A stretch of 45,729 nt of DNA from a virus, in the IMG/VR virus record IMGVR_UViG_3300027852_000009, positions 1-45,729 of that record, one strand, 5' to 3'. The first letter of the stretch is position 1. Each line of letters opens with the position of its first letter. This document shows positions 662 through 43,892 of the stretch, in pieces. The notes under the pieces are model-generated. The model searched no databases and was not told the DNA's origin. It saw only the letters and a program-made list of their open reading frames with translations. A program made the position numbers and the translations under genes.

Positions 662-3600
662 ATGTCCGACCAACTGCTGCGCCTTGAACAAGGCATCAGA
701 GCGGCACATGAAGCGGGCAATGCAGAACACGTCAAGGTACTGGGGGCGGAATATCGCCGCCTTCAGTCCGAGATGTCTGCACCTGCCCCTGAACCTGCCC
801 CAGAACAAAAAGCTGCTCCTGCAACTGGCTTTGGTGACGCCCTCCAATTTGGATGGGACAACGCTGGCCGTAACGTGGGGGGTGGCCTCGAAAGTATCGG
901 TGAACTTCTTGATTGGGATGCTGCGAAGATCGTAGGCAACCACCAGAAGACAACCAACCAGCGTGAAATCGACGCTGCGAATTACTCCCGCCCTGAGGGT
1001 GCTGATGGCGTCCTTACAAACCTCATGCAAGGCGACTTAGCCAATGCTGGGAAGTCCCTCGGCTATGCTGCTGCTGAGAGTGGACCATCAATTGCAACTG
1101 GTGCCTTAGCATCTGGCGCTGCTGTAGCAAGTGGCCCTGTGGCCCTCGGAACCGCTGTTCTGGGTACTGGCGCAACTGCGCTCCAAGCACTCGGTGAGAA
1201 CCGACAGGAGAAGGTAGAGAAGGGTCTCGACCCAACAGCCACATACACAGACCTCGCCTCGGCTGTAGCCTCTGGCGCTGTTGAACTCCTGCCACTCGGT
1301 AAAGCCGGTGGTGGTTTCACTTTGAAGTTCACAAAGGAAGGTCTGCAAGAAGCTGGACAAGAAGGTCTGGTTATCGGTAGCACTGCTGTCCAAGGTGGTG
1401 AATATGTCCCTGAGGAAATCGCCAATCGTCTAGGCGAAGCCTTCGTCGTCGGTGGTGCAATCTCTAAAGGTATGGACGCGACCGTGAACACTGCTGGCAA
1501 AGTTGCTGGTGCTGTTGTTCCAAGCCGAACAGACAACCGGGAATTCACTGGTGACGAAGTTGCTGCTGCTGAACGTATCAAACGTCATGCAGATGGTAGT
1601 GATAAAGTCCTTGGAAACGTCAACGATGATGGGGCAGGGACAGCCAAAGGCGCAGCCAACGCAGCCCTTAGGGAAGCCCGTGCTGAAGCTGAAGCACTCA
1701 CTGCTGATCTGAAGGCAGTTGCCAAGATCACCGATGGTGCTGGTGACGCTGATGTAGCCCTCAAATCACTGGGAAAGATCAAGAGTCACCAAGGGTCAAC
1801 GACCTCTGAACACGCTCTGGATCGTGTTTCTACCGCCCTTCCAGACAACACTGATGTTGCTCGTCTCCGGTCAGTCCTGAAAGAGATTGATGCAATTCAG
1901 GAGTTCACTAAAGGCTCCGACAACGACATGGGTGGCGTATCACGCCTTGCCAAGAAACTTGATCCTCTGGACAAGCGGAACAATAACGCCTTTGGGACAC
2001 ACGCACTTCTCGCTGGTGGCCTTGTCCGTGGCTCTGTTGCCAGTGCTATGGCTATCCCAATTGCAATCAACCGGGCCTCCCGCGTTCTGGATCGTCTGAC
2101 TAATCGCCGGTCTCGTGTGAAACGCTTTGTTGATAGTGCCAAGAAGTCTGGAACCGCTGCAACGCAGATTGATGGACCGACATCTGGTGACATCCTGACG
2201 AAGCTGAAGACTGACCAAGCTGCTATCAAGATGGCAGATGCAAATGCCAAGGTAGCCAAAACTGCACAATCGGACGCCCAGAAGGCCCACATGGCCTATG
2301 AGAAGGCAATGGGCACAAATATCCCTCAAGGCCCTGTGACCCCCCGTAGACCGGCTGACATAGCCCGTCAGGCACAAATGGCTCAACAAGCTGGCATTCC
2401 ATCAGTCCGTGAAGTGACTATGAAGGCTAGAGCAGAGAAAGCTGCCTTGGATCAATCCAATGCAACCTCCCAGGACGCCCGTGGTCTGAAGGCCCAGAAC
2501 CAATTGGCGACTGAACAACAACGTGCCCAAAAGCTGGCCATGTCCCAACAAGCCTTGGACAAGACCCAAGCTGCTGCCCAGCGCCAGACCGAAATGAATA
2601 AAGTCATCTATGACGAAATGTTCAGAACCGGGAAGGTGCCTGAAGGACGTGCGTTCAAGACGTATCAGTTGATGGAACATGCCACAGGTATGAACCCCAA
2701 GAAGGCCGCTCAGACACTCGATCTGCTGGCTCAAGAGGGTCTTATTGACCCAATGATTGCTGAGAAGTTTAAGACTGACCCTGATTGGTTCGCAAATAAC
2801 CCAAAGGATGCCTACAAGGCCCAAGAACTGGTCCGACAGGCTGCTAACCCTGAATACACCGCCCCCCCATTTGTGAAGGACAAGGCGAAAGCCCCCGTAC
2901 ACCCTGACGAGGTTCTGAGGAAGCTGGAAATGGCCGCTGCACGTCCGACATCAAGTCGTCGGAAGCAGAAGGCAATGGAAGGTGATCTGAGGTACAAGCG
3001 TATCCTGCAAGAGATTGCCAAAGCTGAAGGCTCACTGCCCACAAACCAATACAAAGGTTTGTTGCAACTGGTCGAAGAGATGAACCGCCCAGATAGCAAT
3101 ATCACAGACAGGTACACCCTGATCAGCGAGGGCCTGGACATCATCTTTGATGGTAACCCAGCAATGAAGGCATTTTGGGACCGTAAGCTGGCCCCTCTGG
3201 CCGCTATCGGAAACGATCAACGAATTCACCACGCCAAGGTGGAAACCGATCCGGTTCAGGATCAAATGGAAGTCGCCTTTGAAACGAAGGTGAAGAAAGC
3301 TAAGAAGCGAAAAAAGAAACCGGAACTCCCGAAAAAGCCCTCACAAGAGGTGCCAATTACGCAAGAGCCGGATGCCCCTGCTGTAACCCCAGCGGAGAAG
3401 GCGCTCAAAAAGCTGAACAAACCCACACCTGAACCGGAACCTGCCTTGGATCAGTCCAACGCAACCACGACACAGGACCAGCAGGAACCCGTCAAGCCTG
3501 TCAAAACGAAGGCAAGGAAGACCCTGAAGGACCGTACTGATGCTCGTATTGATGACCTGCACTACATGGTCTATCTGGCCGAGACTGAAGGCGACAACCT

Positions 3601-5965
3601 GTCCCAGCACATCGCTAAGTTGGGAAAGGGTTCTGTATCCCGTGTCGAAGGTCTGATCTATCAGTTTGCATCTGATCGTGTGACTGTGAACCAACTGGTT
3701 GATGCCTACAGCACTGAGTATGGAATTCCCCCACAGGACGCCGCAAGGATCGTCAATGACGCCTTGGGTGTTATGGAATTGGAAGGTCAACTCAAGCGCT
3801 TCACTCCAAAGCATTCCGACAGACTGATCTACGATGGTAAGATGGTGAAGACCGAAGACGGAAAGACTGTCTCGGTACTCCAATTACAATTCATGGATGG
3901 ACCTCTGAAGGATCGTGTGGAAGTGGCCAAGGCTGTTCGCTGGACCGAGAAAATGGTCCCAATGGACGCACCAGACAAGAACTTCGACCCAAACTATACC
4001 CAAGATGGAGCGTTCAACGCCTTCAAAGGTATCCCCTCAGATCGTGTGGATGGCACCTTTATGCCGTTGCTGAACATGCTGAACTCCATGCGTAACTCGA
4101 CTATGGCTGTGTCCTCCAAGATGCTAACCCAGATCGAAGATGCGCTGGGCGGTACAGGTGCCAAACGTCAAGGTACAATCAACGAGGTGATGACCCCAAA
4201 GGACAAGCATGGGAAGCCGGATGAAAGTCCGATGCGTACCGTGGCTCAGTTGATCTTCCAGCTAGGCCCTCAGGATGACCGACCCAGCAATCTGATCCGA
4301 CAGGAATGGATGTCTGGCGACAACGGTCGCATCTACTCAAAGAACAGCCTTGCACACTCGCAGGCCGGTGACTTGATGAAGGGTATCCTCAGAACCAACG
4401 AGAAACATCCTGTAGGTGGTGAACCGGGCATGAAAATGCTTATGCACTCCATTGGGAACCTCTTGGGCTTTGACAAGCTGGCTCCGTCATATCGACGTTC
4501 TGCCATCTTCGATCACAATCTGGTCGATGGTTTGGTGAAACTGGCTAATGACCCGTTTGGCAGACAGACCTTGAAGAACGAACGCACCGGGATCACACCT
4601 ATCGGTAAGATGGTCAAGGATGGCGAAGGGTTCTTCCAAGTCCTGAATGCTGCTCATGAAGTCAAAGATATGGTTGATTGGGCGCGTGAACGCCACACCG
4701 ACATGGACGAACTGTCCAATTCTGAACTGCTATCTCACCCTGACGTGGTGGATGACCTGGGTCGGAACTATACGACAGATTTTGTTGTCCAACTTGATGC
4801 CAAGAACAACGCTTACCAGAACCTCGGGATGATGATGGGATACGACAAGGTGCTACGGGAAACCGGAATGCTACCTATGTCACCTGACAACGACCCCGAC
4901 AGTGGTGAAGTTGCTGACATCTACATCAAACCAGCCGTTGGCGTAGCTGAACGAATTCCTGAGTTGTCCGAGTTGGCACTCCCTCAAGGTAAATTGAGGA
5001 AGCTGTTCAAAGGCCCCATTGGGACGTACCTCTACGCCGCTGCATTCAACAGCCGAAAGAAGTCCTTCAGGGACACGCTTGAGGACATGACAGACGGTGC
5101 TGAACTGTTTGGAATGGATGGTGAGGATGCCATGATCAACATTGATCCGGCCCTAAGTGCAGCAATGCTCTCTGAGGAAGGTCATACGTTTGTTGATGAG
5201 CATTACGATGTGAATGGTGATAGCAAGTCAACCAAGGCGACACGGAAGCGTGTTGTGGAAAAAGGTGGCAAGTTCCAAGTCCAGAATGCCGAAGGTGCCG
5301 CTGGCGCTTGGAGTGCTGGTGGGATGAAGTTCAATAGCCCTCAGGAAGCCGTAAAGGAGACCTACTCGACCAACCTCTTTGCTCGTATGAGCCGAGAATT
5401 GGTGAGGGAAATGAACACGCTGTATCCTGATGTGCAGAAGTACCTGAACTACGCTGAGATTGTGTCCAAGGTTGTCAAAGATCGTGGTGGTGCAGACATT
5501 ATTGTACCGACCGCTGATGGCATTGACCTTCGCTACTCCTTTAAGCAGACACCCGGTTTTGAAGCTGCCCCTGTCACCCTTGGTGATGGACGTGTGGTTG
5601 ATCTAGGTGTTCGCAACGCTGACGAGAAGCTGGCTGGCCGTGGCCTAGCTGCCTTCATGGCTCACCAAATGGACGCCTTTGTCCTGAGGGAGACCCACAA
5701 GCGTATGGGGGATATGAAGTCCTTCAACCCAATCCATGACAGCTTTGGCTTTCATCCTTCTGACGCCCAGCGCGGACAGGAGACATGGGTAGGTGTGATG
5801 CAAGAACTTGGTGATGCGAACTACAACATCTTCCTGAATATCCTCGAAGCCAACGGCGTAACGCTTGAGGAATTCGTGGGCGCTGGTGGTGACCCCTCGG
5901 TCATCCTCGGTCGGCAAGGTGTTGCACCCGTACCGGCAGGCCAAATCCCTACGGCTTTGTCGTAA
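662..5965 (+). CDS. Giant virion-module protein (1767 aa) with a C-terminal T7/N4-type single-subunit RNA polymerase domain (putative virion-packaged RNAP)
   Basis: aa ~1120-1767 match T7 RNAP motif by motif. LNMLNSMRNSTMAVSSKML matches YKAINIAQNTAWKINKKVL. SGDNGRIYSK...AGDLMKGIL matches MDWRGRVYAV...GNDMTKGLL (T/DxxGR). VVQLDAKNNAYQNLG is motif A. KGPIGTYLY is motif B (K-N7-Y). NPIHDSFGF is motif C. The N-terminal ~1100 aa are Ala/Gly/Gln-rich and low complexity. The gene lies between the SLT internal protein and the terminase genes. SD AAGGAA precedes the ATG at 662. Confidence 0.85.
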   Translation: MSDQLLRLEQGIRAAHEAGNAEHVKVLGAEYRRLQSEMSAPAPEPAPEQKAAPATGFGDALQFGWDNAGRNVGGGLESIGELLDWDAAKIVGNHQKTTNQREIDAANYSRPEGADGVLTNLMQGDLANAGKSLGYAAAESGPSIATGALASGAAVASGPVALGTAVLGTGATALQALGENRQEKVEKGLDPTATYTDLASAVASGAVELLPLGKAGGGFTLKFTKEGLQEAGQEGLVIGSTAVQGGEYVPEEIANRLGEAFVVGGAISKGMDATVNTAGKVAGAVVPSRTDNREFTGDEVAAAERIKRHADGSDKVLGNVNDDGAGTAKGAANAALREARAEAEALTADLKAVAKITDGAGDADVALKSLGKIKSHQGSTTSEHALDRVSTALPDNTDVARLRSVLKEIDAIQEFTKGSDNDMGGVSRLAKKLDPLDKRNNNAFGTHALLAGGLVRGSVASAMAIPIAINRASRVLDRLTNRRSRVKRFVDSAKKSGTAATQIDGPTSGDILTKLKTDQAAIKMADANAKVAKTAQSDAQKAHMAYEKAMGTNIPQGPVTPRRPADIARQAQMAQQAGIPSVREVTMKARAEKAALDQSNATSQDARGLKAQNQLATEQQRAQKLAMSQQALDKTQAAAQRQTEMNKVIYDEMFRTGKVPEGRAFKTYQLMEHATGMNPKKAAQTLDLLAQEGLIDPMIAEKFKTDPDWFANNPKDAYKAQELVRQAANPEYTAPPFVKDKAKAPVHPDEVLRKLEMAAARPTSSRRKQKAMEGDLRYKRILQEIAKAEGSLPTNQYKGLLQLVEEMNRPDSNITDRYTLISEGLDIIFDGNPAMKAFWDRKLAPLAAIGNDQRIHHAKVETDPVQDQMEVAFETKVKKAKKRKKKPELPKKPSQEVPITQEPDAPAVTPAEKALKKLNKPTPEPEPALDQSNATTTQDQQEPVKPVKTKARKTLKDRTDARIDDLHYMVYLAETEGDNLSQHIAKLGKGSVSRVEGLIYQFASDRVTVNQLVDAYSTEYGIPPQDAARIVNDALGVMELEGQLKRFTPKHSDRLIYDGKMVKTEDGKTVSVLQLQFMDGPLKDRVEVAKAVRWTEKMVPMDAPDKNFDPNYTQDGAFNAFKGIPSDRVDGTFMPLLNMLNSMRNSTMAVSSKMLTQIEDALGGTGAKRQGTINEVMTPKDKHGKPDESPMRTVAQLIFQLGPQDDRPSNLIRQEWMSGDNGRIYSKNSLAHSQAGDLMKGILRTNEKHPVGGEPGMKMLMHSIGNLLGFDKLAPSYRRSAIFDHNLVDGLVKLANDPFGRQTLKNERTGITPIGKMVKDGEGFFQVLNAAHEVKDMVDWARERHTDMDELSNSELLSHPDVVDDLGRNYTTDFVVQLDAKNNAYQNLGMMMGYDKVLRETGMLPMSPDNDPDSGEVADIYIKPAVGVAERIPELSELALPQGKLRKLFKGPIGTYLYAAAFNSRKKSFRDTLEDMTDGAELFGMDGEDAMINIDPALSAAMLSEEGHTFVDEHYDVNGDSKSTKATRKRVVEKGGKFQVQNAEGAAGAWSAGGMKFNSPQEAVKETYSTNLFARMSRELVREMNTLYPDVQKYLNYAEIVSKVVKDRGGADIIVPTADGIDLRYSFKQTPGFEAAPVTLGDGRVVDLGVRNADEKLAGRGLAAFMAHQMDAFVLRETHKRMGDMKSFNPIHDSFGFHPSDAQRGQETWVGVMQELGDANYNIFLNILEANGVTLEEFVGAGGDPSVILGRQGVAPVPAGQIPTALS
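2447..2460. repeat. TTGGA-N4-TCCAA element, copy 1 (intragenic)
   Basis: TTGGATCAATCCAA inside the 1767-aa CDS, read in frame as L-D-Q-S-N. Confidence 0.9.
3446..3459. repeat. Element copy 2 (intragenic)
   Basis: TTGGATCAGTCCAA in the same CDS, again L-D-Q-S-N. About 26 nt of extended similarity to copy 1. Confidence 0.9.
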
Positions 5966-5984: not shown

Positions 5985-5998
5985 TTGGACTAATCCAA
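5985..5998. repeat. Element copy 3
   Basis: TTGGACTAATCCAA. Arms extend to 14 nt (5976-6007). The 3' arm contains the SD for the 6021 start. Confidence 0.9.
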
Positions 5999-6020: not shown

Positions 6021-6731
6021 ATGACCCCTCAAAACCCAAATGTCTGTCCGAGAACAGGTAGGTTGCTCACCGAATGGTTTGAGTACCCAGAAAAGACTGA
6101 TGAAGATGTGATCAAAGAGGCTTGTGAAGAGGCAGGAACTACAGTGGAAGACCGGCCAATGATCCGTGCTGGTGACACCCTACATCCTGACTTTGAACTG
6201 GCTCAAAAGGTCAACTCTCTCATCGCTGGCCGCAAGAAGCGGGCATGGAAAAACGGGATGTCTCAACAGGAAGTAGCCCAAAGAATGGACCAAGCCACCA
6301 AAATGGTGAACCCAGACAACTACAAGTTCTTGGATGATGGTATCCGTGAGCGGACTGGTCTGGAAGTGAACCCACTATGGATGATCGAATGCCTTGTGCG
6401 TTCCGGTGTCCTATCCCCAAAAGAGCAGGTTGCAGCCTTAAAGGAATTGGCCGGTTATACCCATTCCAAGGCTCCCAGCATTAGCCATTCGACCACAACC
6501 CAGATGAACCCAGAGGATTGGCTTCTGGAACTGGCCAAGGACGAATACACAGAAATTGACTTCAAACAGCCTATGCAGCCCGTTGAGAGGGGCATGGGCA
6601 AGACCTACGAAAGCAACATCCTAAAGCGCACCAAAGAGACCGACGCGCTTGCAGTCCACGCTGACGAAGACCTCAAAATGATGATGCTAGAGGTTGATGC
6701 TGAGTGGGAGGAAGAAGACGACGATGACTGA
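6021..6731 (+). CDS. Hypothetical protein in the small-terminase position
   Basis: 236-aa ORF immediately upstream of and overlapping the large terminase. Acidic C-terminus (EEEDDDD). SD GGAGGGGGA in the 3' arm of the upstream hairpin element. Function inferred from position only. Confidence 0.4.
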   Translation: MTPQNPNVCPRTGRLLTEWFEYPEKTDEDVIKEACEEAGTTVEDRPMIRAGDTLHPDFELAQKVNSLIAGRKKRAWKNGMSQQEVAQRMDQATKMVNPDNYKFLDDGIRERTGLEVNPLWMIECLVRSGVLSPKEQVAALKELAGYTHSKAPSISHSTTTQMNPEDWLLELAKDEYTEIDFKQPMQPVERGMGKTYESNILKRTKETDALAVHADEDLKMMMLEVDAEWEEEDDDD

Positions 6732-8304
6732 CCCCCAGACCGCAATGGTCGGGGTTCGAAAGCGTCTGAAAGAAGATTTTGCATTCTATGCTGAAAAAGC
6801 CCTGAGGATCAGGACGAAGAAAGCAGAGATTGTTCCCTTCCGACTGAACCCCGCCCAGTGGGTTCTCCATGAGGCGATAGCTGAGAGCATCAGGAATACC
6901 GGACGTGTCCGTATCATCATCCTGAAGGCTAGACAGCAAGGTCTATCCACATATGTGGGTGGTAAGCTGTATCATGGTGTGAGCCAGTCAGAGGCCCAAA
7001 AGGCCATCGTGGTAACCCACAAGGCTGACAGTACCACGGCTCTGTTCAACATGACCAAACGGTATCATGAGAATGTCCCTGAAATCCTCCGACCCTCAAC
7101 CTCATACTCATCAAAGAAGGAATTGACTTTTGACAAACTGGATAGTTCGTACATGGTCGCTACTGCCGGTGGCGATGGCATTGCCCGTGGTGAAACGATT
7201 ACCCATGCCCACCTGTCCGAGTTAGCATTCTGGAAAGAAAGCTCGGCGCGGGCCAACCTGAACGGTCTGTTACAGTCCGTCCCTGAAGTCCCAGGCACTG
7301 AAGTTTACATCGAAAGCACAGCCAATGGTGTGACCGGCCCATTCTACGAGATGTGGAAAGGGGCTGTTAAAGGAACCAACGGATACACCGCTGTGTTCAT
7401 TCCGTGGTTCCTCGACCCTGAGTACCGCCGTAAGGCCCCCGAAGGGTTCCAAAGGACACCTGAGGAAGAGAAGCTATCCCAGACCTATAACCTTGACGAT
7501 GACCAACTCTATTGGCGTCGTGTGAAGGTGAACCAGAACGGTCTGGACCTCTTTAAGCAGGAATACCCTGCCTACGCCGACGAAGCCTTTCTAACTACTG
7601 GTCGGCCTGTCTTTGATCCGGTCCAACTGACCGATTGGATGGCCCTCAAGACACAACCAAAGACCCGCATGGCTCTGACGTTGGATCGTTGGGAAGAACA
7701 CCCAGTAGGTGAATTGTTGATGTATAGGGAGCATGATCCCGGTGAAACTTATTACATTGGAGCTGACGTTGCTATGGGGGTCCGTGGGGGTGACTTTAGT
7801 GTCGCCCAAATCCTCGACAGTCAGAAGAGACAGGTAGGAATGTGGCGAGGCCATGTCCATCCTGACTATTATGCTGAAGTCCTCTACCGGCTCGGTATGC
7901 TCTACAACGAGGCGCGCATTGCTGTTGAAAGCAACAACCATGGCCTGCTGACGGTAACCCTTCTCTACAAGACTTGGGATTATCCAAACGTCCATACAAA
8001 CGTCCATGAAGACAAGATCACTGACGTTGAAACGCCCAATCTAGGCTTCCAGACGACTGCCAAATCCAAGCCAATGATCATTGATGATCTGAGGGCATCA
8101 CTCCGCAAGGGTGAGATGGAACTATTCGACCATGTGACGATGCAAGAGATGCTGACTTACGTGGTGAAAGAGAGTGGGAAATTGGAAGCTGAAGGCGACT
8201 GCCATGATGACTGTGTGATGTCTCTGGCCATCGCTAATCACGTTCATGACGGGGTTTGGACACCCATCGAAATAACGGCGGATCATTACGTCGAAGCAAT
8301 CTAA
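6724..8304 (+). CDS. Terminase large subunit
   Basis: Walker-A-like RIIILKARQQGLST. Conserved C-terminal nuclease-type acidic residues (GADVAMG..., CHDDCVMSLAIA). Start chosen at the ATG with GGGAGGAAG upstream; in-frame alternatives at 6694 and 6697. Confidence 0.9.
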   Translation: MTDPQTAMVGVRKRLKEDFAFYAEKALRIRTKKAEIVPFRLNPAQWVLHEAIAESIRNTGRVRIIILKARQQGLSTYVGGKLYHGVSQSEAQKAIVVTHKADSTTALFNMTKRYHENVPEILRPSTSYSSKKELTFDKLDSSYMVATAGGDGIARGETITHAHLSELAFWKESSARANLNGLLQSVPEVPGTEVYIESTANGVTGPFYEMWKGAVKGTNGYTAVFIPWFLDPEYRRKAPEGFQRTPEEEKLSQTYNLDDDQLYWRRVKVNQNGLDLFKQEYPAYADEAFLTTGRPVFDPVQLTDWMALKTQPKTRMALTLDRWEEHPVGELLMYREHDPGETYYIGADVAMGVRGGDFSVAQILDSQKRQVGMWRGHVHPDYYAEVLYRLGMLYNEARIAVESNNHGLLTVTLLYKTWDYPNVHTNVHEDKITDVETPNLGFQTTAKSKPMIIDDLRASLRKGEMELFDHVTMQEMLTYVVKESGKLEAEGDCHDDCVMSLAIANHVHDGVWTPIEITADHYVEAI

Positions 8305-8314
8305 AGGAAACTGA

Positions 8315-10324
8315 ATGGCTAAGGAACTGAGTGACGATAAACTCGCCACCATCCTCGAAAAAGCCATCTCCAACTCTGAACACATGCACGATGGCGCTCT
8401 GGCAAAGGAGCGTCAAACGGTAGGCGAATATTACCGTGGTGAACTACCCAAGCCCCTCCATAAAGGTGACAGCAAGTATGTCTCACGCGATGTCTTTGAC
8501 ACCGTGGACAGTATGCGGGCCACCGTTGTGGAAGCCTTCTTGGCGAATAACCGCATTGTGTATTTCCGCCCTGAAAAGGGTGAGACAGTTGAAGGTGCAA
8601 AGCAGGCTACAGAATACACCCGTCACGTCTTCTTCAAGGAGAACAAGGGTGAAGAACTTCTGTATGACACCTGCACAGATGGACTGATGAACCGCTTTGC
8701 CGTGGTCAAGGTCCGGTTCGAAGAAACCCCTGAGGATGAAGAATACGAATTCGAAGGTTTGACACCTGATGAACTGACAATGCAGGTTGCTGGATACACC
8801 GAGTTCGAATTCAAGGACGCTGAAGTCTCAGACAATGGGCTGTATTCAGGAACCTTTATGGTCCCGAAGAAGACCCAAAAGATCGTCTGTGAGAGCGTCC
8901 AGCCTGAAGACTTTCTGGTCTCATCCCGTTGTGCTGATCTATCTAAGGCAAAGTACGCCATCCATCGGACGGAGAAGTCCAAATCCCAACTGATTAAGAT
9001 GGGCTTCCCCCGCAAGATTATCGACAAGATCACCTTCAGCACCCGATCTGACCTGTCTCTGGATATGGAAAAGGATGCTCGGTTTGAAGGTCTGGATGAC
9101 ATCATTCCTACAGATGAGGACTATGACGACAGTGTTGGCCAAGTGGTCATGTACGAAGTCTACATCCGGATCGACATGGAAGGCAAAGGAACAAACTCAA
9201 TCTGGAAGGTCTGCTACGCGGACAACAAGATTTTGGAAAAGGAAAAGGTCTCCCGGTTCCCCTTCGCTACCTTTGTACCGCTCCCTCGTGCCCACACATT
9301 CAGTGGTGAGAACTTTGCCCATGCAGTGATCCCCGTGCAGAACGCTCGGACGGTCCTGATCCGGCAAATCATCAACCACTCACTGATCACCAACAACCCT
9401 CGACAGATGGTCATGAATGGCACCATGAGGAACCCCAATGAACTCCTTGAGAACCGTATGGGTGGTGTGGTGAACGTGACACGAATGGATGGTATTTCGC
9501 CTATCCCTCAGGCCCCTTTGAACCCCTTTATCTTCAACCTCATCGCCATGATTGACGAGGACAAGGAAGAGACCACAGGTATCTCAAAGCTGTCCCAAGG
9601 GATGAACAAGGACGCTGTATCCACCCAGAATAGCCAAGGTATGGTCGAACAGTTGATCAATCAGTCCCAACAGAGGACGAAGATCATCACTCGCCGCTTT
9701 GGGCTGTTCGTCAAAGAAGTTTACGGCCTGATCAATCAGATGGCTGTTGACTATGTGGACGAGGCAGAATTCCAGTCTGTCACTGGCGAGTATGTCGAAG
9801 TCAACCCGTCCGAATGGATGGAGCGAACCCCTGCCAGTATTGAACTGACACTTGGCTATGGTGAGCAACAGCAGGAGAGCGACAAGTGGATGCAGATCGA
9901 CCAATACCTAGCCCAAGACCCTGAGTTGAAGCCCGGTTATGGTTACGCCCAGCGCTATGAGGTGATCAGTCGATCCCTTGAGGCCCGTGGTGTTGAGGAT
10001 ATGCAATCCTTCATGACGCCACCAGAAGAGATGAAACCGCCGGAGCCAAACCCAGCGGAAGAACTGCAACTTGCCCAGCTACAGGCCCAGGTTGAGGTGA
10101 CCAAGGCACAAGCCCAAGCCACCATGATCAAAGCCGAGACTGACCGCATGAAGGCCCAAGCTGACCTTCTACGTGCGCAGTCTGATGCTCAATTCAAGCA
10201 GAACGACATCGCTATGTCGGCCATCCAGTTTGACCATGATCGTTACATCGACACGGAAGAACTCAAGGCTGCGAAATCACTGCCTGAAGATCAAGTATCG
10301 GCATCGTTCAACCCGAACGAATAA
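8315..10324 (+). CDS. Portal protein
   Basis: 669-aa ORF directly after TerL, with a coiled/acidic C-terminal tail. Size and position are canonical for a portal. The junction sequence CTAAAGGAAACTGAATG is shared with the start at 662. Confidence 0.75.
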   Translation: MAKELSDDKLATILEKAISNSEHMHDGALAKERQTVGEYYRGELPKPLHKGDSKYVSRDVFDTVDSMRATVVEAFLANNRIVYFRPEKGETVEGAKQATEYTRHVFFKENKGEELLYDTCTDGLMNRFAVVKVRFEETPEDEEYEFEGLTPDELTMQVAGYTEFEFKDAEVSDNGLYSGTFMVPKKTQKIVCESVQPEDFLVSSRCADLSKAKYAIHRTEKSKSQLIKMGFPRKIIDKITFSTRSDLSLDMEKDARFEGLDDIIPTDEDYDDSVGQVVMYEVYIRIDMEGKGTNSIWKVCYADNKILEKEKVSRFPFATFVPLPRAHTFSGENFAHAVIPVQNARTVLIRQIINHSLITNNPRQMVMNGTMRNPNELLENRMGGVVNVTRMDGISPIPQAPLNPFIFNLIAMIDEDKEETTGISKLSQGMNKDAVSTQNSQGMVEQLINQSQQRTKIITRRFGLFVKEVYGLINQMAVDYVDEAEFQSVTGEYVEVNPSEWMERTPASIELTLGYGEQQQESDKWMQIDQYLAQDPELKPGYGYAQRYEVISRSLEARGVEDMQSFMTPPEEMKPPEPNPAEELQLAQLQAQVEVTKAQAQATMIKAETDRMKAQADLLRAQSDAQFKQNDIAMSAIQFDHDRYIDTEELKAAKSLPEDQVSASFNPNE

Positions 10325-10338: not shown

Positions 10339-10352
10339 TTGGACTTATCCAA
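10339..10352. repeat. Element copy 4
   Basis: TTGGACTTATCCAA after the portal stop. Arms extend to 12 nt (10332-10359). Confidence 0.9.
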
Positions 10353-10376: not shown

Positions 10377-10652
10377 GTGACACCTATCACCGAACAAGAA
10401 GCGGTTCGTATGGGTATGGAGTTCCGGAGGCTGACTAACAGCCCTGACTTCGACACCGTGATCGAAATGCTCAAACACCAATACCAATCACAGATCAGTG
10501 GTTCAGACCTAGCCGACAAGGCAGGCCGAGAAGCCTCATTCCAACAGATACGATCCTTGGATGAACTGATCACAACTTTCAACACATTCATCGCAATTGC
10601 AGAGGCCGACATCTTGGACGCCCCCTTCGATGAAGACAACATTTTTGAATAA
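10377..10652 (+). CDS. Hypothetical small head-module protein
   Basis: GTG start preceded by AAGGAGAG. In-frame alternative ATG at 10410. Lies between portal and scaffold. Confidence 0.5.
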   Translation: MTPITEQEAVRMGMEFRRLTNSPDFDTVIEMLKHQYQSQISGSDLADKAGREASFQQIRSLDELITTFNTFIAIAEADILDAPFDEDNIFE

Positions 10653-12607: not shown

Positions 12608-12621
12608 TTGGATTAGTCCAA
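12608..12621. repeat. Element copy 5
   Basis: TTGGATTAGTCCAA between the capsid stop and the terminator. Outer arms GCTGCC / GGTAGCAGC. Confidence 0.9.
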
Positions 12622-12633
12622 GGTAGCAGCCTA

Positions 12634-12670
12634 GCCGCTCTGGTGTCTCTCCCACTAGGGCGGCTTTTCT
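12634..12670 (+). terminator. Rho-independent terminator after the capsid gene
   Basis: 12-bp stem GCCGCTCTGGTG / CACTAGGGCGGC (two G-U pairs), 7-nt loop, then TTTTCT. Confidence 0.75.
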
Positions 12671-12988: not shown

Positions 12989-13002
12989 TTGGACTAATCC
13001 AA
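12989..13002. repeat. Element copy 6
   Basis: TTGGACTAATCCAA followed by AGGAGACCAAATG (start at 13013). Confidence 0.9.
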
Positions 13003-31238: not shown

Positions 31239-32981
31239 TTATGAGAAGAAAAACTCACTTTTCAGTATGTCTTGGACATTAAAGAGGCCCAACTCAGGTG
31301 CATCAGGCATGGTTAGCCCACTGTAACGCTCAACACTCTCCTTCCAGACTGCAAGGTAATCATCGTCGTACATATCGACCATTGATTGACGAAGAATGTC
31401 ACGCATTGTGCCAACATGAGCGAAGGGACACCCAAAGCTATCATGGATCATGCTGAAGTCTCTGATTCCGATGTCGTGCATACGATTGACCGTGATCTGT
31501 AGGTGAGAGGCATCACAGGAATGGACAACATTTGGTGGCGCTGCTGTTGCCATCTTGCCTTTGTCGATCCCTACACGTCTGAGGAAGTCAACCTCTTCTT
31601 CACCCTCGTCTGGCTCCATGTAGACTAGGAACCGAGTGTCAAATGAGGTGATCCTTTTTGAGATAAGGTTCCGATAGGCTTGGGTGACCTTGGACCCAGC
31701 AGGAGTATCCCAGCACAGAGGTAGGTTGTTCTCTGCACACAGTGCAGCACATTCCATGAACCAAGCCTGTAGGGCCTTACCACGGTTCAGGGTCTTGTCC
31801 ACCGCCTCCAAGATCAAGTCCCTCATGTACTTAGCCTGATCCCACTTGTCTGGACCGGGTTCAACGTGCTTGTCTGCAATCATGAAGTCAGCAACACCAC
31901 GGGCTGTGACCCCATAAGGCACAGTCATGACAGACCGTTTGACCACCTTACGGCGTTTACTAGGGTCTGACATTTTGGCTGACCATTTAAGGGCCATAGG
32001 ATCATCATTGGCAGCGTCAATCTGTATCTGTTCCCAGACACGATCAGCAACTTCCATGTAGAGGTCTTCCCTTGGCCCTGTCATGCAATTGGTAGCCTTG
32101 GCTCCCACAAGGTCACAGGCCATGACACTCAGATGTTGCGCGCCATTGCATGAACCATCTAGGTTGCCGGGTAGGTGCGACATGAAGTCTTCAGGGTCAC
32201 CCAAACGCCAAGCAAAGACCCACTCATAAGCCACGGCTAGGAATTGGAATGGTTTGTCAGCCTTGAGCCATCCTCTGTTCTTCATTGGGTCATCCACCCA
32301 CGAACCAATCAATGCCAGGTTTTCAACTGCCCATTCCATACGCTCGTCAGGGTGTAGCTTATCCTCACCAAAGTGAGTGGCAACTGTGAACCCCATCCAG
32401 TAGACCCCTTCGGACCCCAGCCGGGTAGGCTTGGCAAACCTTAGGAGACCCTTGGCCAGATCACTTGATTGTGGTGTGAGGTCTGAGGGGATGGGATAGA
32501 TGCGTGTTCTGAAGTCCATGTTGTGGGGAAAATAGAACTTATCGAACTCCCACATCTCGCGGGCTGTTGATAGGATGCGTCTTGCAGACCGGGCCTCACC
32601 TAGTTGGGATTTGTAATCTTCATGGATGATTTGCTTGGCCTGCTTGTTGGCCTTCTTATCATCTGGTGACATCTCATCCCAGACCTCAGGGTCAAACCAA
32701 AGGTCTTGTAAGGCTGACGTGGTAGCTGGGTTGATAGGCTCATCCAACCTCAGGACAACCTCTCCATCATGTATGATGTCCATCTTACGATCAAGGAACT
32801 GATCTAGGATGTTGAGAATTTGGCCATTAACTGTCCAAGCTGTTTCTTGGACGTAGTTGACTGCGTTGACTGTGTAGTTTGAAATTTGGGTCATGTCGGT
32901 TGCCGTGTGGCCGCTGCCACCTACACCACGGACTAGGTTTTCGTTGTGGAGGAAGTAACCTCCTGAATATTGAACTGTCAT
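31239..32981 (-). CDS. T7-like RNA polymerase, large (catalytic) subunit
   Basis: SGGYFLHNENLV aligns with T7 GGGYWANGRRPL. MDFRTRIYPIPSDLTPQSSDLAKGLL is T/DxxGR. NLDGSCNGAQHLSVM is motif A. KRSVMTVPYGVT is motif B. MIHDSFGCPF is motif C. C-terminal DILKSEFFFS aligns with T7 DILESDFAFA. Confidence 0.95.
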   Translation of the reverse strand: MTVQYSGGYFLHNENLVRGVGGSGHTATDMTQISNYTVNAVNYVQETAWTVNGQILNILDQFLDRKMDIIHDGEVVLRLDEPINPATTSALQDLWFDPEVWDEMSPDDKKANKQAKQIIHEDYKSQLGEARSARRILSTAREMWEFDKFYFPHNMDFRTRIYPIPSDLTPQSSDLAKGLLRFAKPTRLGSEGVYWMGFTVATHFGEDKLHPDERMEWAVENLALIGSWVDDPMKNRGWLKADKPFQFLAVAYEWVFAWRLGDPEDFMSHLPGNLDGSCNGAQHLSVMACDLVGAKATNCMTGPREDLYMEVADRVWEQIQIDAANDDPMALKWSAKMSDPSKRRKVVKRSVMTVPYGVTARGVADFMIADKHVEPGPDKWDQAKYMRDLILEAVDKTLNRGKALQAWFMECAALCAENNLPLCWDTPAGSKVTQAYRNLISKRITSFDTRFLVYMEPDEGEEEVDFLRRVGIDKGKMATAAPPNVVHSCDASHLQITVNRMHDIGIRDFSMIHDSFGCPFAHVGTMRDILRQSMVDMYDDDYLAVWKESVERYSGLTMPDAPELGLFNVQDILKSEFFFS

Positions 32982-33007
32982 GATTTTCTACCACCGTTTT
33001 TTTTTCT

Positions 33008-33021
33008 TTGGATTAGTCTAA
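33008..33021. repeat. Element copy 17 (variant arm), at the RNAP split point
   Basis: TTGGATTAGTCTAA. Encodes L-D-stop of the small subunit. Followed (minus sense) by an A9 run (32997-33005) and the large-subunit ATG. Confidence 0.85.
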
Positions 33022-38998: not shown

Positions 38999-39871
38999 TC
39001 ATGCAAGCGATGCAAGATAGTCGATTTGGCTTTGCTGACCTTTGTGTTCAGTAAACATCTCTTTCAGACAGTCAGCCAGTTCGACAAGGCAGTCATCTTT
39101 GTCGTCATGTTGCCCGACATAGGCGATAAGACTTTTGATTGCCTTAGTGGTGGCTGTCTTCATCTTGCGATCAGCAGCAGCCTTTTCAGCTTCATCTACA
39201 TCTTTGCAAGCCTGTTCTTCATCGCTTGTGTCGATACCTTTGTCGGTAGCCTTAGCCAGCTTATCGGCCTTCTTTGTGGCTTCCTTGTAGGCGCGTTTGA
39301 TCACTGTCGGATTGCCAGACTTGTAATCGGCAATCTGATTGACCCCCAGCACGATGAGTAAATCTGAACCATCAGCGCCATCGACGTTTACAGCTTCATA
39401 AAGCCACTTGCAGTTTGAACGCAAAGCCGGGTCAAGTGTTGCAGATGCAGGTGCGGCCTTGGCCAAGTATTGACCATAGAGTTTTGTGGACTTGAACAGT
39501 GGCGCAACACCAGAGGCGAAAGAGCCAAGGGCCATGTATGAGTCAAGCAATTCACCATCTTTGTCGGCAATCGCTTGTGCAGCCTTGGCTACCTCATCGG
39601 AGGCTTTTTGGATTGCCGCAACGTCTGCACCTTCTTTCAGGTCATATGACACGCCATCGACTGCAATGGTGATAACGGTGGGGACAATCTTTGGTGTTGG
39701 TTCTGGTTTAAGATTAACAAGGTTTGCAGGTGCCTTAGTGGCCGGTTTGGCCTTCACCTTTGCAGGTGCCTTGCGTGGTTTTGTGGGGGCTTTGGTGGCC
39801 ATTGTGATGACTTCCTTTGTGGCTTCGGTGGTTGCGGTTGTAGTGGCTTTACGAGTGTTGCGAGTTGTCAT
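38999..39871 (-). CDS. Early protein with a Lys/Ala/Pro-rich (histone-H1-like) N-terminus
   Basis: KAPTKPRKAPAKVKAKPATKAPANL..., then a helical Ala/Lys/Asp-rich body. Monocistronic: it has its own upstream control region and its own terminator. Confidence 0.6.
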   Translation of the reverse strand: MTTRNTRKATTTATTEATKEVITMATKAPTKPRKAPAKVKAKPATKAPANLVNLKPEPTPKIVPTVITIAVDGVSYDLKEGADVAAIQKASDEVAKAAQAIADKDGELLDSYMALGSFASGVAPLFKSTKLYGQYLAKAAPASATLDPALRSNCKWLYEAVNVDGADGSDLLIVLGVNQIADYKSGNPTVIKRAYKEATKKADKLAKATDKGIDTSDEEQACKDVDEAEKAAADRKMKTATTKAIKSLIAYVGQHDDKDDCLVELADCLKEMFTEHKGQQSQIDYLASLA

Positions 39872-39901
39872 GATATAAACCTTTCCGGGTTTTGTTGTCT
39901 A

Positions 39902-39915
39902 TTGGATAAGTCCAA
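39902..39915. repeat. Element copy 25
   Basis: TTGGATAAGTCCAA, 31 nt upstream of the 39871 (-) start. Confidence 0.9.
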
Positions 39916-39937
39916 CAGAGGGACGTTTAGGGGGCTT

Positions 39938-39967
39938 TGGGACAATACTTGGACACATAGTGATACA
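39938..39967 (+). promoter_or_regulatory. 30-bp element related to the 39-bp repeat (copy A)
   Basis: Identical to 38756-38785. Lies in the divergent control region, ~70 nt from the 39871 start and ~540 nt from the 40510 start. Confidence 0.45.
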
Positions 39968-40106
39968 CCAGCCGAATGGGCTTAGAATACCTGTGAGATT
40001 GTCACTACTAGCATGAGGATTAATGCAGCTTCATACATGTGTTTGATCCTTCGTTGTTAAAAGACATTAGGTGGAGGAAAAACCGATTTGAGGATTTTCT
40101 GTCGTC

Positions 40107-40130
40107 CACTATGGCCACAACGCGCCACAC
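40107..40130. repeat. 24-bp box, copy A
   Basis: CACTATGGCCACAACGCGCCACAC. See 38622-38645. Confidence 0.85.
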
Positions 40131-40140
40131 TGGCCTTGCC

Positions 40141-40154
40141 TTGGACCTATCCAA
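40141..40154. repeat. Element copy 26
   Basis: TTGGACCTATCCAA plus TGCAGCC in the divergent control region. Confidence 0.9.
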
Positions 40155-40509
40155 TGCAGCCTTGTGCCTATATGTCTGGCCACGCTATGGGACACACTAC
40201 CACAACTGACCTGCTAACCTATTGAAATCATTACGCTTTATCCACCTGTCCACATATTGCGAGGTTAGATTGCAAGGCAAATTAATGCCGGAAGCTAGAA
40301 GGGCCGGGGGGTTTTTGAGGGTTCAATTCAAAAATAAGGGTTATTGTTATTATTGATTATTTCGATTTTTTCCCGTCTTGAAGGGGAGGGGGATCACAGT
40401 AAAATCCCCTATAGTGGAAGGCCCCCATGGACCTCCTAAGGTTCCCTATGGTACTCCTTGGTCCCTACCTTGGCTCTCCCTGACATCTCCCCAATGAAAG
40501 AAACCCCCA

Positions 40510-40779
40510 ATGATCCCATCCCGAGAACTCCCTGACATCCTCTCCCAAAGTGTCCTTGGACACCCATACGACCCCCAATCAACTTTACCCGAACGCTTCG
40601 AAATCGACTTCCTGCAAGAGCAAGTTGAGAATTGGGAGCAAGGGTCAAACCCGACGAAGAACCTCTTGGCTACTTTTGAACAGCACAACACTGGTGACTT
40701 TGACCTGATGCAATGGATGCAAGGTTGGGTCGATCAGGATGTCTATGAATGGCCTGAAGAGGAAAACCCAGAAACGTAA
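40510..40779 (+). CDS. Hypothetical acidic protein (first gene of the rightward arm)
   Basis: 89-aa ORF. Weak SD. Confidence 0.45.
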   Translation: MIPSRELPDILSQSVLGHPYDPQSTLPERFEIDFLQEQVENWEQGSNPTKNLLATFEQHNTGDFDLMQWMQGWVDQDVYEWPEEENPET

Positions 40780-40795: not shown

Positions 40796-40809
40796 TTGGA
40801 TTAGTCCAA
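40796..40809. repeat. Element copy 27
   Basis: TTGGATTAGTCCAA plus AGGAAG, upstream of the 40820 start. Confidence 0.9.
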
Positions 40810-40819: not shown

Positions 40820-41674
40820 ATGGCACTTGAAACCGGAACCTATATCGACTCCCTGACGGAGACCAACCCCACCTCATCGGACAACGCCGCCCAAGGTGAT
40901 GATCATCTTCGTCTGATTAAAGCTACCCTGAAAGCCACCTTCCCTAATCTGGTCGGGGCTATGACAGCCACTGAAGCCCAATTGAATTCTGCGATTGTCT
41001 CAGTGGCAGAGACCGTCAAAGGTAACTCTGCTGCTACTGACGAGGACACTGCTGATGTGTCCATGACCGACCTGAAGAACATGCTTGGTCTTGGTGCATC
41101 TGCTTTTGAACCATTAAACACATTCGCTGCTGCTGCTCACGAACATGATGCTTCCTATGCTGGCTTATCCCATACACATACTGCTTCCCAGACAGTCTCC
41201 GGTGAATTTGACCCTGCACGTCTACCTGCTGCCACCATTTCTTCAATAGGTGCTGTTGAGAAAGCTACAACCACTGAAATGGAAGCTGGTACGGCTGACA
41301 AATTCCCTGACGCTGCCAAGGTGAAATCCTTTGTGGATGCTTCTGTAGCTGCTACCACCACAGTAATTGAATTTGCTGTACCCGCATCAGGTGTGACTGC
41401 ATCTGCACCCCATGGGCTATCGGTGGGCAACTCTAAGAACTGGAATGTGCATCTTGAGTGTATTAAGGACACTGGCATCTTTGTTATAGGTGATCAGGTC
41501 TCCCCTCCCGGTAATTATAGTGGTGCTGGTTTGTATTTTGGGGCCATACCGTATGTGACAGCAACACACGCCAAGTTCTTCATTGAGGCTAATGGTATGC
41601 GTTTAGGTCATAATTCCGGCTCTGGTATAGAACAGGGTGACCTCTACTGGAAAGTTGTATTCACGTTCAATTAA
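40820..41674 (+). CDS. Tail fibre / receptor-binding protein
   Basis: N-terminus MALETGTYIDSLTETNPTSSDNAAQGDDHLRLIKATLKATFPN is the widespread phage fibre N-terminal motif. ATG preceded by element copy plus AAAGGAAG. Confidence 0.6.
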   Translation: MALETGTYIDSLTETNPTSSDNAAQGDDHLRLIKATLKATFPNLVGAMTATEAQLNSAIVSVAETVKGNSAATDEDTADVSMTDLKNMLGLGASAFEPLNTFAAAAHEHDASYAGLSHTHTASQTVSGEFDPARLPAATISSIGAVEKATTTEMEAGTADKFPDAAKVKSFVDASVAATTTVIEFAVPASGVTASAPHGLSVGNSKNWNVHLECIKDTGIFVIGDQVSPPGNYSGAGLYFGAIPYVTATHAKFFIEANGMRLGHNSGSGIEQGDLYWKVVFTFN

Positions 41675-41686
41675 GAAAGCAAACCC

Positions 41687-43306: not shown

Positions 43307-43309
43307 CCC

Positions 43310-43483: not shown

Positions 43484-43892
43484 ACCAACCCGATATACCA
43501 TTCTGGATAACCACGAATTCCTCCTGACGGGGGAGTGGGTGGCCGATGGTGAGTTTTGGGTTCTACATTGCACCTTCTTGGTGCCTTGGACGAAGGGCTT
43601 GAGAAAGCGTTTTACCAATTTGCTACGAAGTGTGTCGGCCCGTACTGACTACCCGTGCTACGCTTTCCAAGCCCCTTCGTGTGACCCATTGAAACGTAAA
43701 TTCATCCAACAGGTTGGGGGCGTCTTCGAACACTACGCTACCTCCGATGAAGGAGAAGTTTGCGAGATGTTCCGCTTCCTCCCTTGGACTAATCCAAAGG
43801 ACCAACATGAGTTCTCTATTCAAATCAAAAACGAAGACGGTGCAGAACCCATTCGAAAGCAACCCTTGGGAGGCCCAGCAAGACTACCTTAA
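43467..43892 (+). CDS. Hypothetical protein (start uncertain)
   Basis: 141-aa ORF with only a TTG or other non-ATG start. The 3' end overlaps the next gene by 86 nt and contains an element copy. Confidence 0.35.
   Translation: MKHPHEPTRYTILDNHEFLLTGEWVADGEFWVLHCTFLVPWTKGLRKRFTNLLRSVSARTDYPCYAFQAPSCDPLKRKFIQQVGGVFEHYATSDEGEVCEMFRFLPWTNPKDQHEFSIQIKNEDGAEPIRKQPLGGPARLP
43784..43797. repeat. Element copy 28
   Basis: TTGGACTAATCCAA plus AGGACC, upstream of the 43807 start. Read as P-W-T-N-P-K in the overlapping upstream ORF. Confidence 0.9.

Follow-up and report, generated by a model that had tools for sequence, protein, structure and literature searches.

What is a short palindrome doing 28 times over in the genome of a phage? 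We addressed this question for the virus record IMGVR_UViG_3300027852_000009, the whole 45,729-nt stretch of which was analysed (the window), and for the dyad TTGGA-N4-TCCAA, the element, that recurs along it. To judge from its genes, the window is an integrase-bearing temperate podovirus, uncultured, with a split T7-like RNA polymerase (RNAP). The pattern of the copies, their orientation, their positions and their conservation across relatives lead us to infer that the element is probably, although we hold this with limited confidence, the promoter of a phage-encoded single-subunit-type RNAP. The same evidence suggests a start site just 3' of the dyad and a reading polymerase, most likely the split two-gene T7-like enzyme, and raises the more tentative idea that the element is read as a template-strand DNA hairpin, as in coliphage N4.

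Sequence and symmetry of the element

A preliminary description of this DNA had counted 21 exact copies and seven copies with a single transition, and held them to be enriched far beyond chance. Both statements are borne out, as TTGGA-N4-TCCAA occurs 21 times in the window against 0.08 times expected, and at most once, in 100 dinucleotide-preserving shuffles. Allowing one mismatch added 10 matches, seven of which are single G-to-A/C-to-T transition variants (at 20875, 25250, 30887, 33008, 33852, 35280 and 37097), the other three (7974, 16330 and 29009) being within chance (2.4 expected). The length of 14 nt given previously holds for the palindromic core, but the conserved unit extends over about 24-26 bp, CT-S-C-N-TTRGA-(3-5 nt)-TCYAA-N-G-S-A-R. 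In gene orientation the window consensus reads g-C-T-(C/G)-C-C-TTRGA-YNNR-TCCAA-N-G-(G/C)-A-(G/A), with T at -4 and G at +2 each in 27 of the 28 copies, A at +4 in all 28 and a purine at +5 in 26.

Pooling the window with eleven related loci gave a set of 113 non-redundant copies. Among the five inner pairs only the third varies in this set (G:C or A:T in 76 copies; A.C in 30; G.U in seven), the other four being invariant. The centre is 3, 4 or 5 nt long, varying among orthologous sites, and its first base is always a pyrimidine and its last always a purine (A.C-type in 66 copies, G.U-type in 16, Watson-Crick in 30). At the flanking positions ±1, pairing is depleted, with 20 Watson-Crick pairs against 31 expected by permutation (A.C 32, G.U 13). 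Over these three positions the sense strand thus carries 128 A.C mismatches against 36 G.U (30/7, 66/16 and 32/13), and the same mismatches are G.T wobbles on the template strand; the six TTAGA variants of the window have an A.C mismatch in the sense RNA, and no wobble. Further out, sequence is conserved at ±4 (T:A in 101 of 113) and ±2 (C:G in 77 of 113), and covariation is modest (p=0.02 at ±3, p=0.01 at ±6, none at ±5). Above all, then, the element is a conserved sequence with dyad symmetry. Complementarity beyond this is weak, and the two strands differ systematically, the asymmetry score following gene direction in 69 copies and opposing it in 17 (p=1e-8). Predicted folds of the sense RNA range from -8 to -20 kcal/mol for perfect copies and from -1 to -2 kcal/mol for the TTAGA copies of the window; when single-stranded DNA is folded, five of eight pairs have the more stable structure on the template strand, by just 0.7-3 kcal/mol over the sense strand.

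Position relative to genes, starts and terminators

The 3' arm had been reported to run into a Shine-Dalgarno (SD) sequence and start codon, and the pooled copies agree. Counting as starts those codons that open an open reading frame (ORF) of at least 35 codons, a start lies 9-13 nt 3' of TCCAA in 50 of the 113 copies and 6-16 nt 3' of it in 57, against 13.7% of random positions. Of the 63 copies associated with a start, 48 have GGAG or GGAA as their 3' flank, and GCAG or GCAA flanks are almost confined to copies without a start (15 of 17). About a third of all copies are not associated with a start, and G at +2 and A at +4 are retained in intragenic copies, where an SD is unneeded. The class TCCAATGCA was considered as a set of leaderless ORF starts and rejected, the ORFs having just 10-23 codons.

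Copies are spaced at about 1.6 kb on average. The earlier claim that every gap longer than about 20 nt holds a copy is true in general, but a gap of 75 nt (21673-21747) has none, and is the sole exception. Not all copies are intergenic: at least six, a point missed at that time, lie inside or overlap ORFs (2447, 3446, 14467, 17159, 37764 and 33008), and these six share the frame TTG-GAx-xxx-TCC-AAx. At least 11 copies stand immediately 3' of the T-run of an intrinsic terminator, with a gene next, for example at 30887 and 38932 in the window, at 3467, 6686 and 12017 in the related locus L002, at 12242 in L006, at 11839 and 21393 in L008, and at 607 and 7351 in L039. The layout of terminator and element 3' of the RNAP gene, seen at 30887 in the window, recurs at L002 12017, L006 12242, L008 11839 and L039 7351.

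Some of these data would fit a hairpin in the sense mRNA, lying between cistrons and hiding or presenting the SD, or acting as a site of processing or stability or as a translational operator. The 3' flank is an SD in about half of the copies, 9-13 nt 5' of the start; perfect copies fold stably as RNA; the 3-5-nt loop, and a double change of the third pair in the related locus L038 (A:T in seven of 12 copies, both sides changed from G:C), suit a stem-loop; extended complementarity lies slightly above that of shuffles; and copies occur at 3' ends adjoining terminators, or as the tip of a terminator (12608 in the window; 3111 and 12342 in L044). Among the explanations first put forward, an mRNA hairpin that hides or presents the SD is nonetheless the least compatible with the data, and we consider a sense-mRNA hairpin of any of these kinds unlikely, because sense mismatches are mainly A.C, pairing at ±1 is avoided, and the TTAGA copies, which outnumber the others in L004/L005, L008 and L038, fold weakly as sense RNA in the window. 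A stem that is invariant over hosts of 47-60% GC would moreover need a conserved RNA-binding protein, and profiling found none; RNase III would be expected to act on a stem longer than 10-12 bp; genes right after terminators would remain promoterless; and an Rfam gathering scan of the window, like a tRNA scan, gave no match.

Distribution in related phages

We found no close DNA relatives among 50,697 phage records, where the best RNAP protein identity is 33% and no cultured relative is included. Close prophages are present in Pseudogemmobacter lacusdianii and one Paracoccus metagenome-assembled genome, and the host group indicated by prophages is the Paracoccaceae. Comparison with related genomes, which the preliminary description had named as a check, places the element at orthologous sites in relatives with an RNAP at least 48% identical, except L045. 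It is carried, in gene orientation, by L001-L008, L038, L039, L043, L044 and L047, with RNAP catalytic subunits that are 48-66% identical. Orthologous slots in the RNAP region lie 5' of the gene of the N-terminal subunit, between both RNAP genes, and after the RNAP gene and its terminator; others lie 5' of the primase-helicase gene and 5' of the small gene upstream of the exonuclease gene. Among the late genes, shared slots are found after portal, after capsid and before its terminator, before the adaptor gene, and before the ejection-protein gene. Both copies within a gene for a 1767-aa protein are likewise kept in position in L047, one of them with a 3-nt centre and a change of the encoded peptide from LDQSN to LDSPK, indicating that the constraint acts on the nucleic acid, at the DNA level.

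These positions bear on two earlier suggestions. A miniature mobile palindrome (MITE- or REP-like) spread through the genome would be short and present in many copies, as the element is, but it is effectively refuted by copies at orthologous sites in relatives whose proteins differ by 40-55% in sequence; in addition, the copies keep a fixed register to SD and ATG, flanking duplications are lacking, no transposase or RAYT was found among the scanned ORFs, and host flanks lack the element. We regard this explanation as scarcely credible. Nor is the element a generic repeat of the host genome, an idea that we rejected, as the host DNA on either side of two prophages lacks it and distant T7-like prophage loci have almost none of it (three matches in 483 kb).

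An operator for a dimeric DNA-binding protein, serving genome-wide silencing or as a roadblock in the manner of stoperators or Cluster O dyad repeats, accounts for more. A conserved symmetric sequence, instead of a covarying stem, points to protein recognition; in the 5-4-5 layout the half-site centres are about 10 bp apart; the phage encodes an integrase and an XRE-type helix-turn-helix (HTH) protein (35308-35649, in the leftward arm), with homologues 66-69% identical in L002, L038 and L043; prophage relatives exist; and stoperators likewise number about 30, lie in short gaps between genes and follow the direction of transcription (PMC9283540, PMC6550527). This proposal is weakened by the variable spacing of the half-sites, 3-5 nt even among orthologous sites, which disfavours a rigid dimer operator, and by the XRE gene, which has no homologue in two element-bearing relatives, L005 and L039, leading us to reject the HTH protein as a universal binder. 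Phylogenetic profiling of the leftward-arm proteins found no accessory (DNA-binding) protein that co-occurs with the element. The sequence stays constant where core proteins are 45-60% identical, whereas immunity specificities normally diverge; an operator does not predict the gene-directed asymmetry, and leaves the phage RNAPs without an identified promoter. Altogether we judge an operator improbable.

The most informative relative is a sister phage that lacks the dyad. L041 has the same synteny, an integrase and a split RNAP that is 38% identical, and carries about 14 co-oriented copies of ACACGACTACGCATA directly followed by GGAG, in register with the T7 promoter (ACGACTCACTATA followed by GGGAGA). 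This textbook T7-type promoter, ACGACTACGCATA followed by GGAG, occupies the slots of the element. Each L041 motif abuts GGAG, with a start codon 6-10 nt on, and the motifs stand 5' of numerous small early genes and also of the genes for the RNAP N-subunit and SSB, of PolA and of the exonuclease block; window copies 33852, 30887, 27588 and 25250 match their slots, the last of these having its T7-type counterpart at 17133 in L041. Two further element-free loci have their own non-palindromic upstream motifs, tAGTATAAGCAAC in L045 (4600-6680) and CGCCTACTAC in L046 (5840 and 11460), which are probably the promoters of their RNAPs.

A DNA cruciform or hairpin that serves not transcription but, say, the priming of replication, recombination or packaging might explain the spread of the copies over the genome, conserved intragenic copies included, in a phage that encodes an Enc34-type SSB, RusA and a T7-type primase-helicase. 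Such a signal would leave the start-codon register, the gene orientation and the positional equivalence with the T7-type motifs of L041 unexplained, and extruded cruciforms would be substrates cut by RusA; we consider it more improbable still than an operator.

Phage RNA polymerases

Which enzyme could read the element? We identified two genes on the minus strand for a T7-like RNAP, one for the N-terminal subunit, which contains the promoter-binding domain (33013-33840; Pfam RPOL_N, E=4.5e-8), and one for the catalytic subunit (31239-32981; Pfam RNA_pol, E=8e-87), which aligns to T7 RNAP from residue ~280 to 883. Both are candidate readers, and this split enzyme is the most likely one. The N-terminal subunit is a separate gene in all relatives, and the about 70 homologues of the catalytic subunit among the matches listed are 559-606 aa long, so that the split is family-wide and includes the prophages of Pseudogemmobacter and Paracoccus. 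The heterodimeric T7-like RNAP of the N4 literature is RNAPII, found in N4-like phages (PMC4496689).

We additionally identified a second candidate reader in the virion or ejection module, the 1767-aa protein (662-5965, plus strand), which has a C-terminal single-subunit RNAP domain (PHROG_414 'RNA polymerase', E=4e-24). Motifs of T7 RNAP including IHDSFG align to it, and it has homologues with PF00940. An exhaustive search with the C-terminal domain recovered 45 cluster representatives, nearly all of 1650-1965 aa; a word-indexed homologue search with the middle of the protein gave no matches. The protein is not detectably closer to the N4 virion RNAP (vRNAP) than to T7 RNAP, and a match to DSS3_VP1 as an N4-like vRNAP was rejected, as this is the ordinary 733-aa RNAP of a Naomviridae siphovirus. 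The position of its gene suggests that the 1767-aa protein is contained in the virion and ejected from it. This integrase-bearing podovirus of 45.7 kb may thus inject an RNAP, and the RNAP domain may read some or all of the copies. A heterodimeric T7-like RNAP together with a large virion RNAP is a combination known from coliphage N4 (PMC4496689).

Several observations concern the surroundings of these genes. An A9 run lies between the element at 33008 and the start of the catalytic RNAP gene (32982-33007, minus strand), where there is no GGAG. In L047 an assembly gap (a run of N at about 7300-7460) falls inside the 1767-aa orthologue, and the called ORF starts at the TTG of an element copy. 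A perfect direct repeat of 39 nt (31193-31231 and 35192-35230, 3999 nt apart) brackets the integrase and RNAP genes, and reads on the minus strand as GGGACAATACTTAGACACACTA followed by GGAGTATCATCCGA, reminiscent of SP6/K11-type promoters. The motif GGGACAATACTTGGACA has two further copies on the plus strand, at 38757 and 39939, and was not found in relatives. A second repeat of the window, GGGACAATACTTRGACA, occurs in four copies and is absent from all relatives; together with the exact 39-nt repeat it was considered as an RNAP promoter and rejected, being window-specific.

Proposed promoter function of the element

We read the dyad as the promoter of this clade mainly because it is positionally equivalent to the T7-type motifs of L041. 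This reading is further supported because the phage needs promoters for its own RNAPs, because the window shares no other repeat family with its relatives, and because the at least 11 copies between a terminator T-run and a gene leave no space for another promoter. The copies at 33852 and 33008 would place a phage promoter 5' of the phage's own RNAP genes, for which the temperate-like T7 relative LUZ100 offers a precedent (PMC10134795). Transcription would start within or just after G-S-A-R, which before genes is GGAG or GGAA and would double as the ribosome-binding site 4-8 nt 5' of the start codon, and each non-overlapping gene block would receive its own transcript.

How the promoter might be recognised is a separate question. 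The centre of 3-5 nt disfavours the rigid spacing of a T7-type duplex promoter, and hairpin recognition is possible because the centre varies in this way and because the mismatches that are tolerated are G.T wobbles if the template strand is considered. What the polymerase recognises would then be the 5-bp stem TTGGA/TCCAA of a hairpin extruded from that strand, as for the N4 virion RNAP. The preliminary description had listed an N4-like DNA-hairpin promoter among its candidates, and of these it is the one that the evidence favours: the split RNAP and second RNAP domain, the slots of L041, the 3-5-nt loop and the template-strand asymmetry favour it, and the hairpin itself is, in our view, a possibility to be held tentatively. 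The double change from G:C to A:T in L038 also speaks for a hairpin, and the excess of A.C over G.U on the sense strand agrees with the N4 rule, by which the hairpin of the template strand is bound and that of the non-template strand melted (PMC4496689). The template-strand bias appears as mismatches that are G.T on that strand, and several copies fold poorly on both strands. The outer CT-S-C...G-S-A-G symmetry may aid extrusion or pair in read-through RNA. The fullest version of the proposal, which we offer as conjecture, is that a temperate Paracoccaceae podovirus family of about 45 kb runs most of its genome from N4-style template-strand hairpins of a 24-bp dyad, read by a heterodimeric T7-like RNAP and/or an ejected RNAP of 1.7 kaa, with the 3' arm doubling as SD.

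A number of points weigh against a promoter, or against its reading as a hairpin. T7-group promoters are not palindromic, and a near-palindrome could initiate in both directions. Copies 12608 and 17740 lie just 5' of terminators of the plus direction, copy 38932 has no following gene, and several copies are intragenic. A start after GGAG, as in the N4 geometry, would give transcripts without an SD, yet GGAG tracks start codons. Covariation is weak, as 99 aligned copies have 73.7% of cells paired against 70.8% in shuffles, with a covariation score for the outer flanks of 0.150 against 0.116, and four weakly flanked TTAGA copies reach no more than 0 to -1.4 kcal/mol, whichever DNA strand is folded. 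The distribution is not fully matched to the RNAP: L045 (RNAP 49% identical) lacks the element whereas L044 (48%) has it, and there is no correlation with an insertion of about 10 aa in the specificity loop of the RNAP, which is absent in the element-bearing L043 and L044 and present in the element-free L045.

Individual copies along the two arms

Rightward genes run from about 40510 over the contig junction to 17631, and their copies lie on the plus strand. Two copies fall inside the 1767-aa ORF: that at 2447-2460 codes for LDQSN, has the flanks CTGCC and TGCAA, and has a counterpart at L047 6489, and that at 3446-3459 has its orthologue at L047 7462, with the 3-nt centre and the peptide LDSPK (versus LDQSN). 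Copy 5985-5998, between this ORF and the gene at 6021-6731, has arms extended to 15 bp and is followed by T5 on the minus strand; its L047 orthologue (10045) has a 3-nt centre. The copy at 10339-10352 lies 3' of the portal gene and 5' of the gene at 10377-10652 (orthologues L001 2035 and L047 14396), and that at 12608-12621, with its asymmetry reversed, lies between the capsid stop and the terminator at 12633-12665 (orthologues L001 4301 and L047 16580, the latter with a 5-nt centre). Copy 12989-13002 precedes by 10 nt the ATG of an adaptor-like gene (13013-13603; orthologues L001 4689 and L047 16982). The tail-fibre ORF (13600-15666) contains copy 14467-14480, which codes for LDVSK, and the end of the endolysin ORF (16583-17224) contains copy 17159-17172, 48 nt 5' of the holin start at 17221.

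Three further plus-strand copies stand beyond the leftward arm. Copy 40141-40154, in the divergent control region, has GCAG-type flanks; copy 40796-40809 lies 10 nt 5' of the ATG of a tail gene (40820-41674); and copy 43784-43797 lies 9 nt 5' of the ATG of the ejection-protein gene (43807-44745; orthologue L047 2181).

Leftward genes run from 39871 to about 17671, and the remaining copies are on the minus strand. At its head, copy 39902-39915 stands 30 nt 5' of the ATG of the gene at 38999-39871, and copy 38932-38945, which is not start-associated, directly follows the terminator at 38984-38961. Copies precede an ATG by 12 nt at 38530-38543 (gene 38230-38517) and at 37097-37110 (TTAGA; gene 36848-37084), and copy 37764-37777, in the last 10 codons of 37748-38233, precedes by 12 nt the GTG of the gene at 37641-37751. 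Copy 35943-35956 falls in a poorly coding stretch (35771-36121), and copy 35280-35293 (TTAGA) falls between the XRE and integrase genes, its arms extending to 12 bp on the plus strand. In the RNAP region, copy 33852-33865 (TTAGA) lies 11 nt 5' of the ATG of the RNAP N-terminal subunit gene, with orthologues at L002 8962 (centre N4), L005 8954 (centre N5) and L043 3767. Copy 33008-33021 (TTAGA) lies between the two RNAP genes, the TAA of its loop being the stop codon of the N-terminal subunit gene (33013-33840). Copy 30887-30900 (TTAGA) directly follows the terminator at 30928-30909, stands 12 nt 5' of the ATG at 30874, and heads the SSB-RusA-primase block.

Further along this arm, copy 29124-29137 precedes by 9 nt the GTG of the primase-helicase gene (27603-29114; orthologue L002 13838), and copy 27588-27601 is directly 3' of the stop of that gene, upstream of a small ORF and PolA. 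Copy 25250-25263 (TTAGA) lies 11 nt 5' of the ATG of the gene at 24954-25238, upstream of the exonuclease gene, in a slot shared with L002 (18215). Copy 23498-23511 is 9 nt 5' of the ATG of the gene at 23261-23488, copy 20875-20888, a TCTAA variant in gene direction, is 5' of the RNR gene (19134-20840), and copy 18875-18888 is 10 nt 5' of the ATG at 18864. The last, 17740-17753, is at the convergence of the arms, adjoins a bidirectional terminator (about 17762-17815), and lies directly after a T-run on the minus strand.

Other features of the genome

The contig is circular, with a terminal overlap of 23 nt, a length of 45.7 kb and a GC content of 50.7%. Products of the leftward arm include an ArdA-like protein, the XRE-type HTH protein, a tyrosine integrase, the split RNAP, the Enc34-type SSB, RusA, the T7-type primase-helicase, PolA, a 5'-3' exonuclease, ThyX and RNR, and those of the rightward arm include tail and ejection proteins, terminase, portal, scaffold, capsid, tail fibre, endolysin and holin. 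The tail-fibre gene has collagen-like Gly-X-Y repeats with a period of 9 nt (15029-15262, plus strand).

Two stretches, 38545-38998 and 39872-40509, are apparently non-coding regulatory regions with paralogous repeats (38622-38649/40107-40134 and 38757/39939), and each has two copies of the element. Repeats resembling CACGCTATGGGACAC are found at 33841-34097, with further occurrences at 40181 and 40107. The 17-mer CCCCAATGATCCCATCC occurs twice, at 40503-40520 (plus strand), at the start of gene 40510, and at 21722-21738 (minus strand), within the element-free 75-nt gap.

A stretch of 365 nt without coding capacity 3' of the RNAP gene contains a tRNA-like T-arm and 3' acceptor strand (CTGGGTTCAAATCCCAG and then ACCCACG; 30965-30995, minus strand), at which ARAGORN calls no tRNA; this may be the attP core or its remnant. 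In the Pseudogemmobacter prophage (L006/L007, about 8130-8950; compare window 33841-34097), host genes stop just 5' of the RNAP N-subunit gene and the integrase gene is not adjacent, which suggests that attP lies between the integrase and RPOL_N genes.

Significance

A promoter function would mean a new pair of RNAP and promoter, in a phage group that is uncultured but widespread, comprises about 70 RNAP clusters and has prophages in both Pseudogemmobacter and Paracoccus. Its architecture would be unusual, combining dyad symmetry, a flexible centre and a start signal fused to the ribosome-binding site, and it might serve in alphaproteobacteria as a compact part for expression, possibly an orthogonal one. 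Should the element prove to be read as a hairpin, structure-dependent initiation would be recurrent among single-subunit RNAPs and not an oddity of coliphage N4, occurring here together with lysogeny. This would be the first hairpin-promoter system outside the N4-like phages and the first to operate genome-wide, for early and late genes, and the evolution of a T7-type duplex promoter into a hairpin promoter would be directly testable, as sister phages retain the T7-type motif in the same slots.

Comparison with known systems

Several families of repeated phage sequences resemble the element without including it. Cluster A stoperators also number about 30 sites in the short intergenic gaps of temperate phages and are oriented with transcription (PMC9283540, PMC6550527), but they are asymmetric 13-bp sites, bind a monomeric repressor and vary by immunity group, whereas here no cognate repressor tracks the element. 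The repeat of Cluster O mycobacteriophages, a 17-bp dyad (TGTTCGG-N3-CCGAACA) the function of which is unknown (PMC4351075), is similar in having more than 30 copies, an invariant short inverted repeat and a variable centre, with many copies intergenic and about one third coding; it differs in being neither oriented with transcription nor tied to starts, in its fixed spacing, and in having no RNAP. The start-associated sequences (SAS) and extended SAS (ESAS) of Cluster K, also of unknown function, the ESAS being inverted repeats with a variable spacer (PMC3203893), are repeated motifs that include the ribosome-binding site, stand directly 5' of many starts in one orientation and are kept across subclusters before unrelated genes. 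The SAS core GGGATAGGAGCCC is asymmetric, however, the ESAS repeats are 17 bp and lie upstream of SAS, and there is no phage RNAP, whereas here the dyad contains the SD, a third of the copies are not start-associated, and the host group is the Paracoccaceae. The element is not a member of the SAS/ESAS, of the Cluster O repeats or of the stoperators. Similarly, a T7 RNase III site is a long sense duplex of about 20 bp or more, in which G.U or compensatory changes preserve pairing, while the stem here is 10-12 bp at most and A.C far exceeds G.U.

T7-group promoters (about 23 bp, from -17 to +6, TAATACGACTCACTATA followed by GGGAGA) are closer. An RNAP of the T7 family is encoded here, the motif is similar in length, and its many co-oriented copies likewise stand after terminators and before gene blocks; the proposed start has a G-rich G-S-A-R, many window copies have GACT 7-8 nt 5' of GGAG, and the corresponding slots hold a near-T7 consensus in the sister phage L041. 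T7-group transcripts start at a defined G of the motif, and the G at +2 (27 of 28 copies) and purine at +5 (26 of 28) would be compatible with this. The differences are that the element is a dyad of about 24 bp with a centre of 3-5 nt, that it abuts the SD, and that the RNAP is split into two genes. Although a phage-RNAP promoter is what the element most resembles in its apparent working, it lacks two defining features of the T7-group duplex promoter, asymmetry and fixed spacing.

The early promoters of N4 share more of the structure. N4 vRNAP binds a template-strand hairpin, the non-template one being melted by SSB, and some conserved bases of the stem are contacted while others need only pair, the start being fixed a few nt past the stem (PMC4496689). 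In both systems there is an inverted repeat with a conserved 5-bp stem and a short loop, a bias towards the template strand (expected in N4, and seen here in the mismatches), and a heterodimeric T7-like RNAP alongside a second RNAP domain in a large virion-module protein (RNAPII and vRNAP in N4); the distance from stem to purine is about 4 nt here (N-G-S-A), comparable to the -4 to -1 ruler of N4. There is no sequence similarity, the loop is 3 nt in N4 against 3-5 nt here, the RNAP-domain protein here has 1767 aa, and some copies are predicted to be unstable as hairpins. Promoters of this type rely on a virion-packaged RNAP, on supercoiling and on SSB. N4 has three such promoters at one genome end, whereas the window has 28, before early and late genes alike. 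Judged by its sequence, the element has the structural features of an N4 hairpin promoter in a very different genomic distribution.

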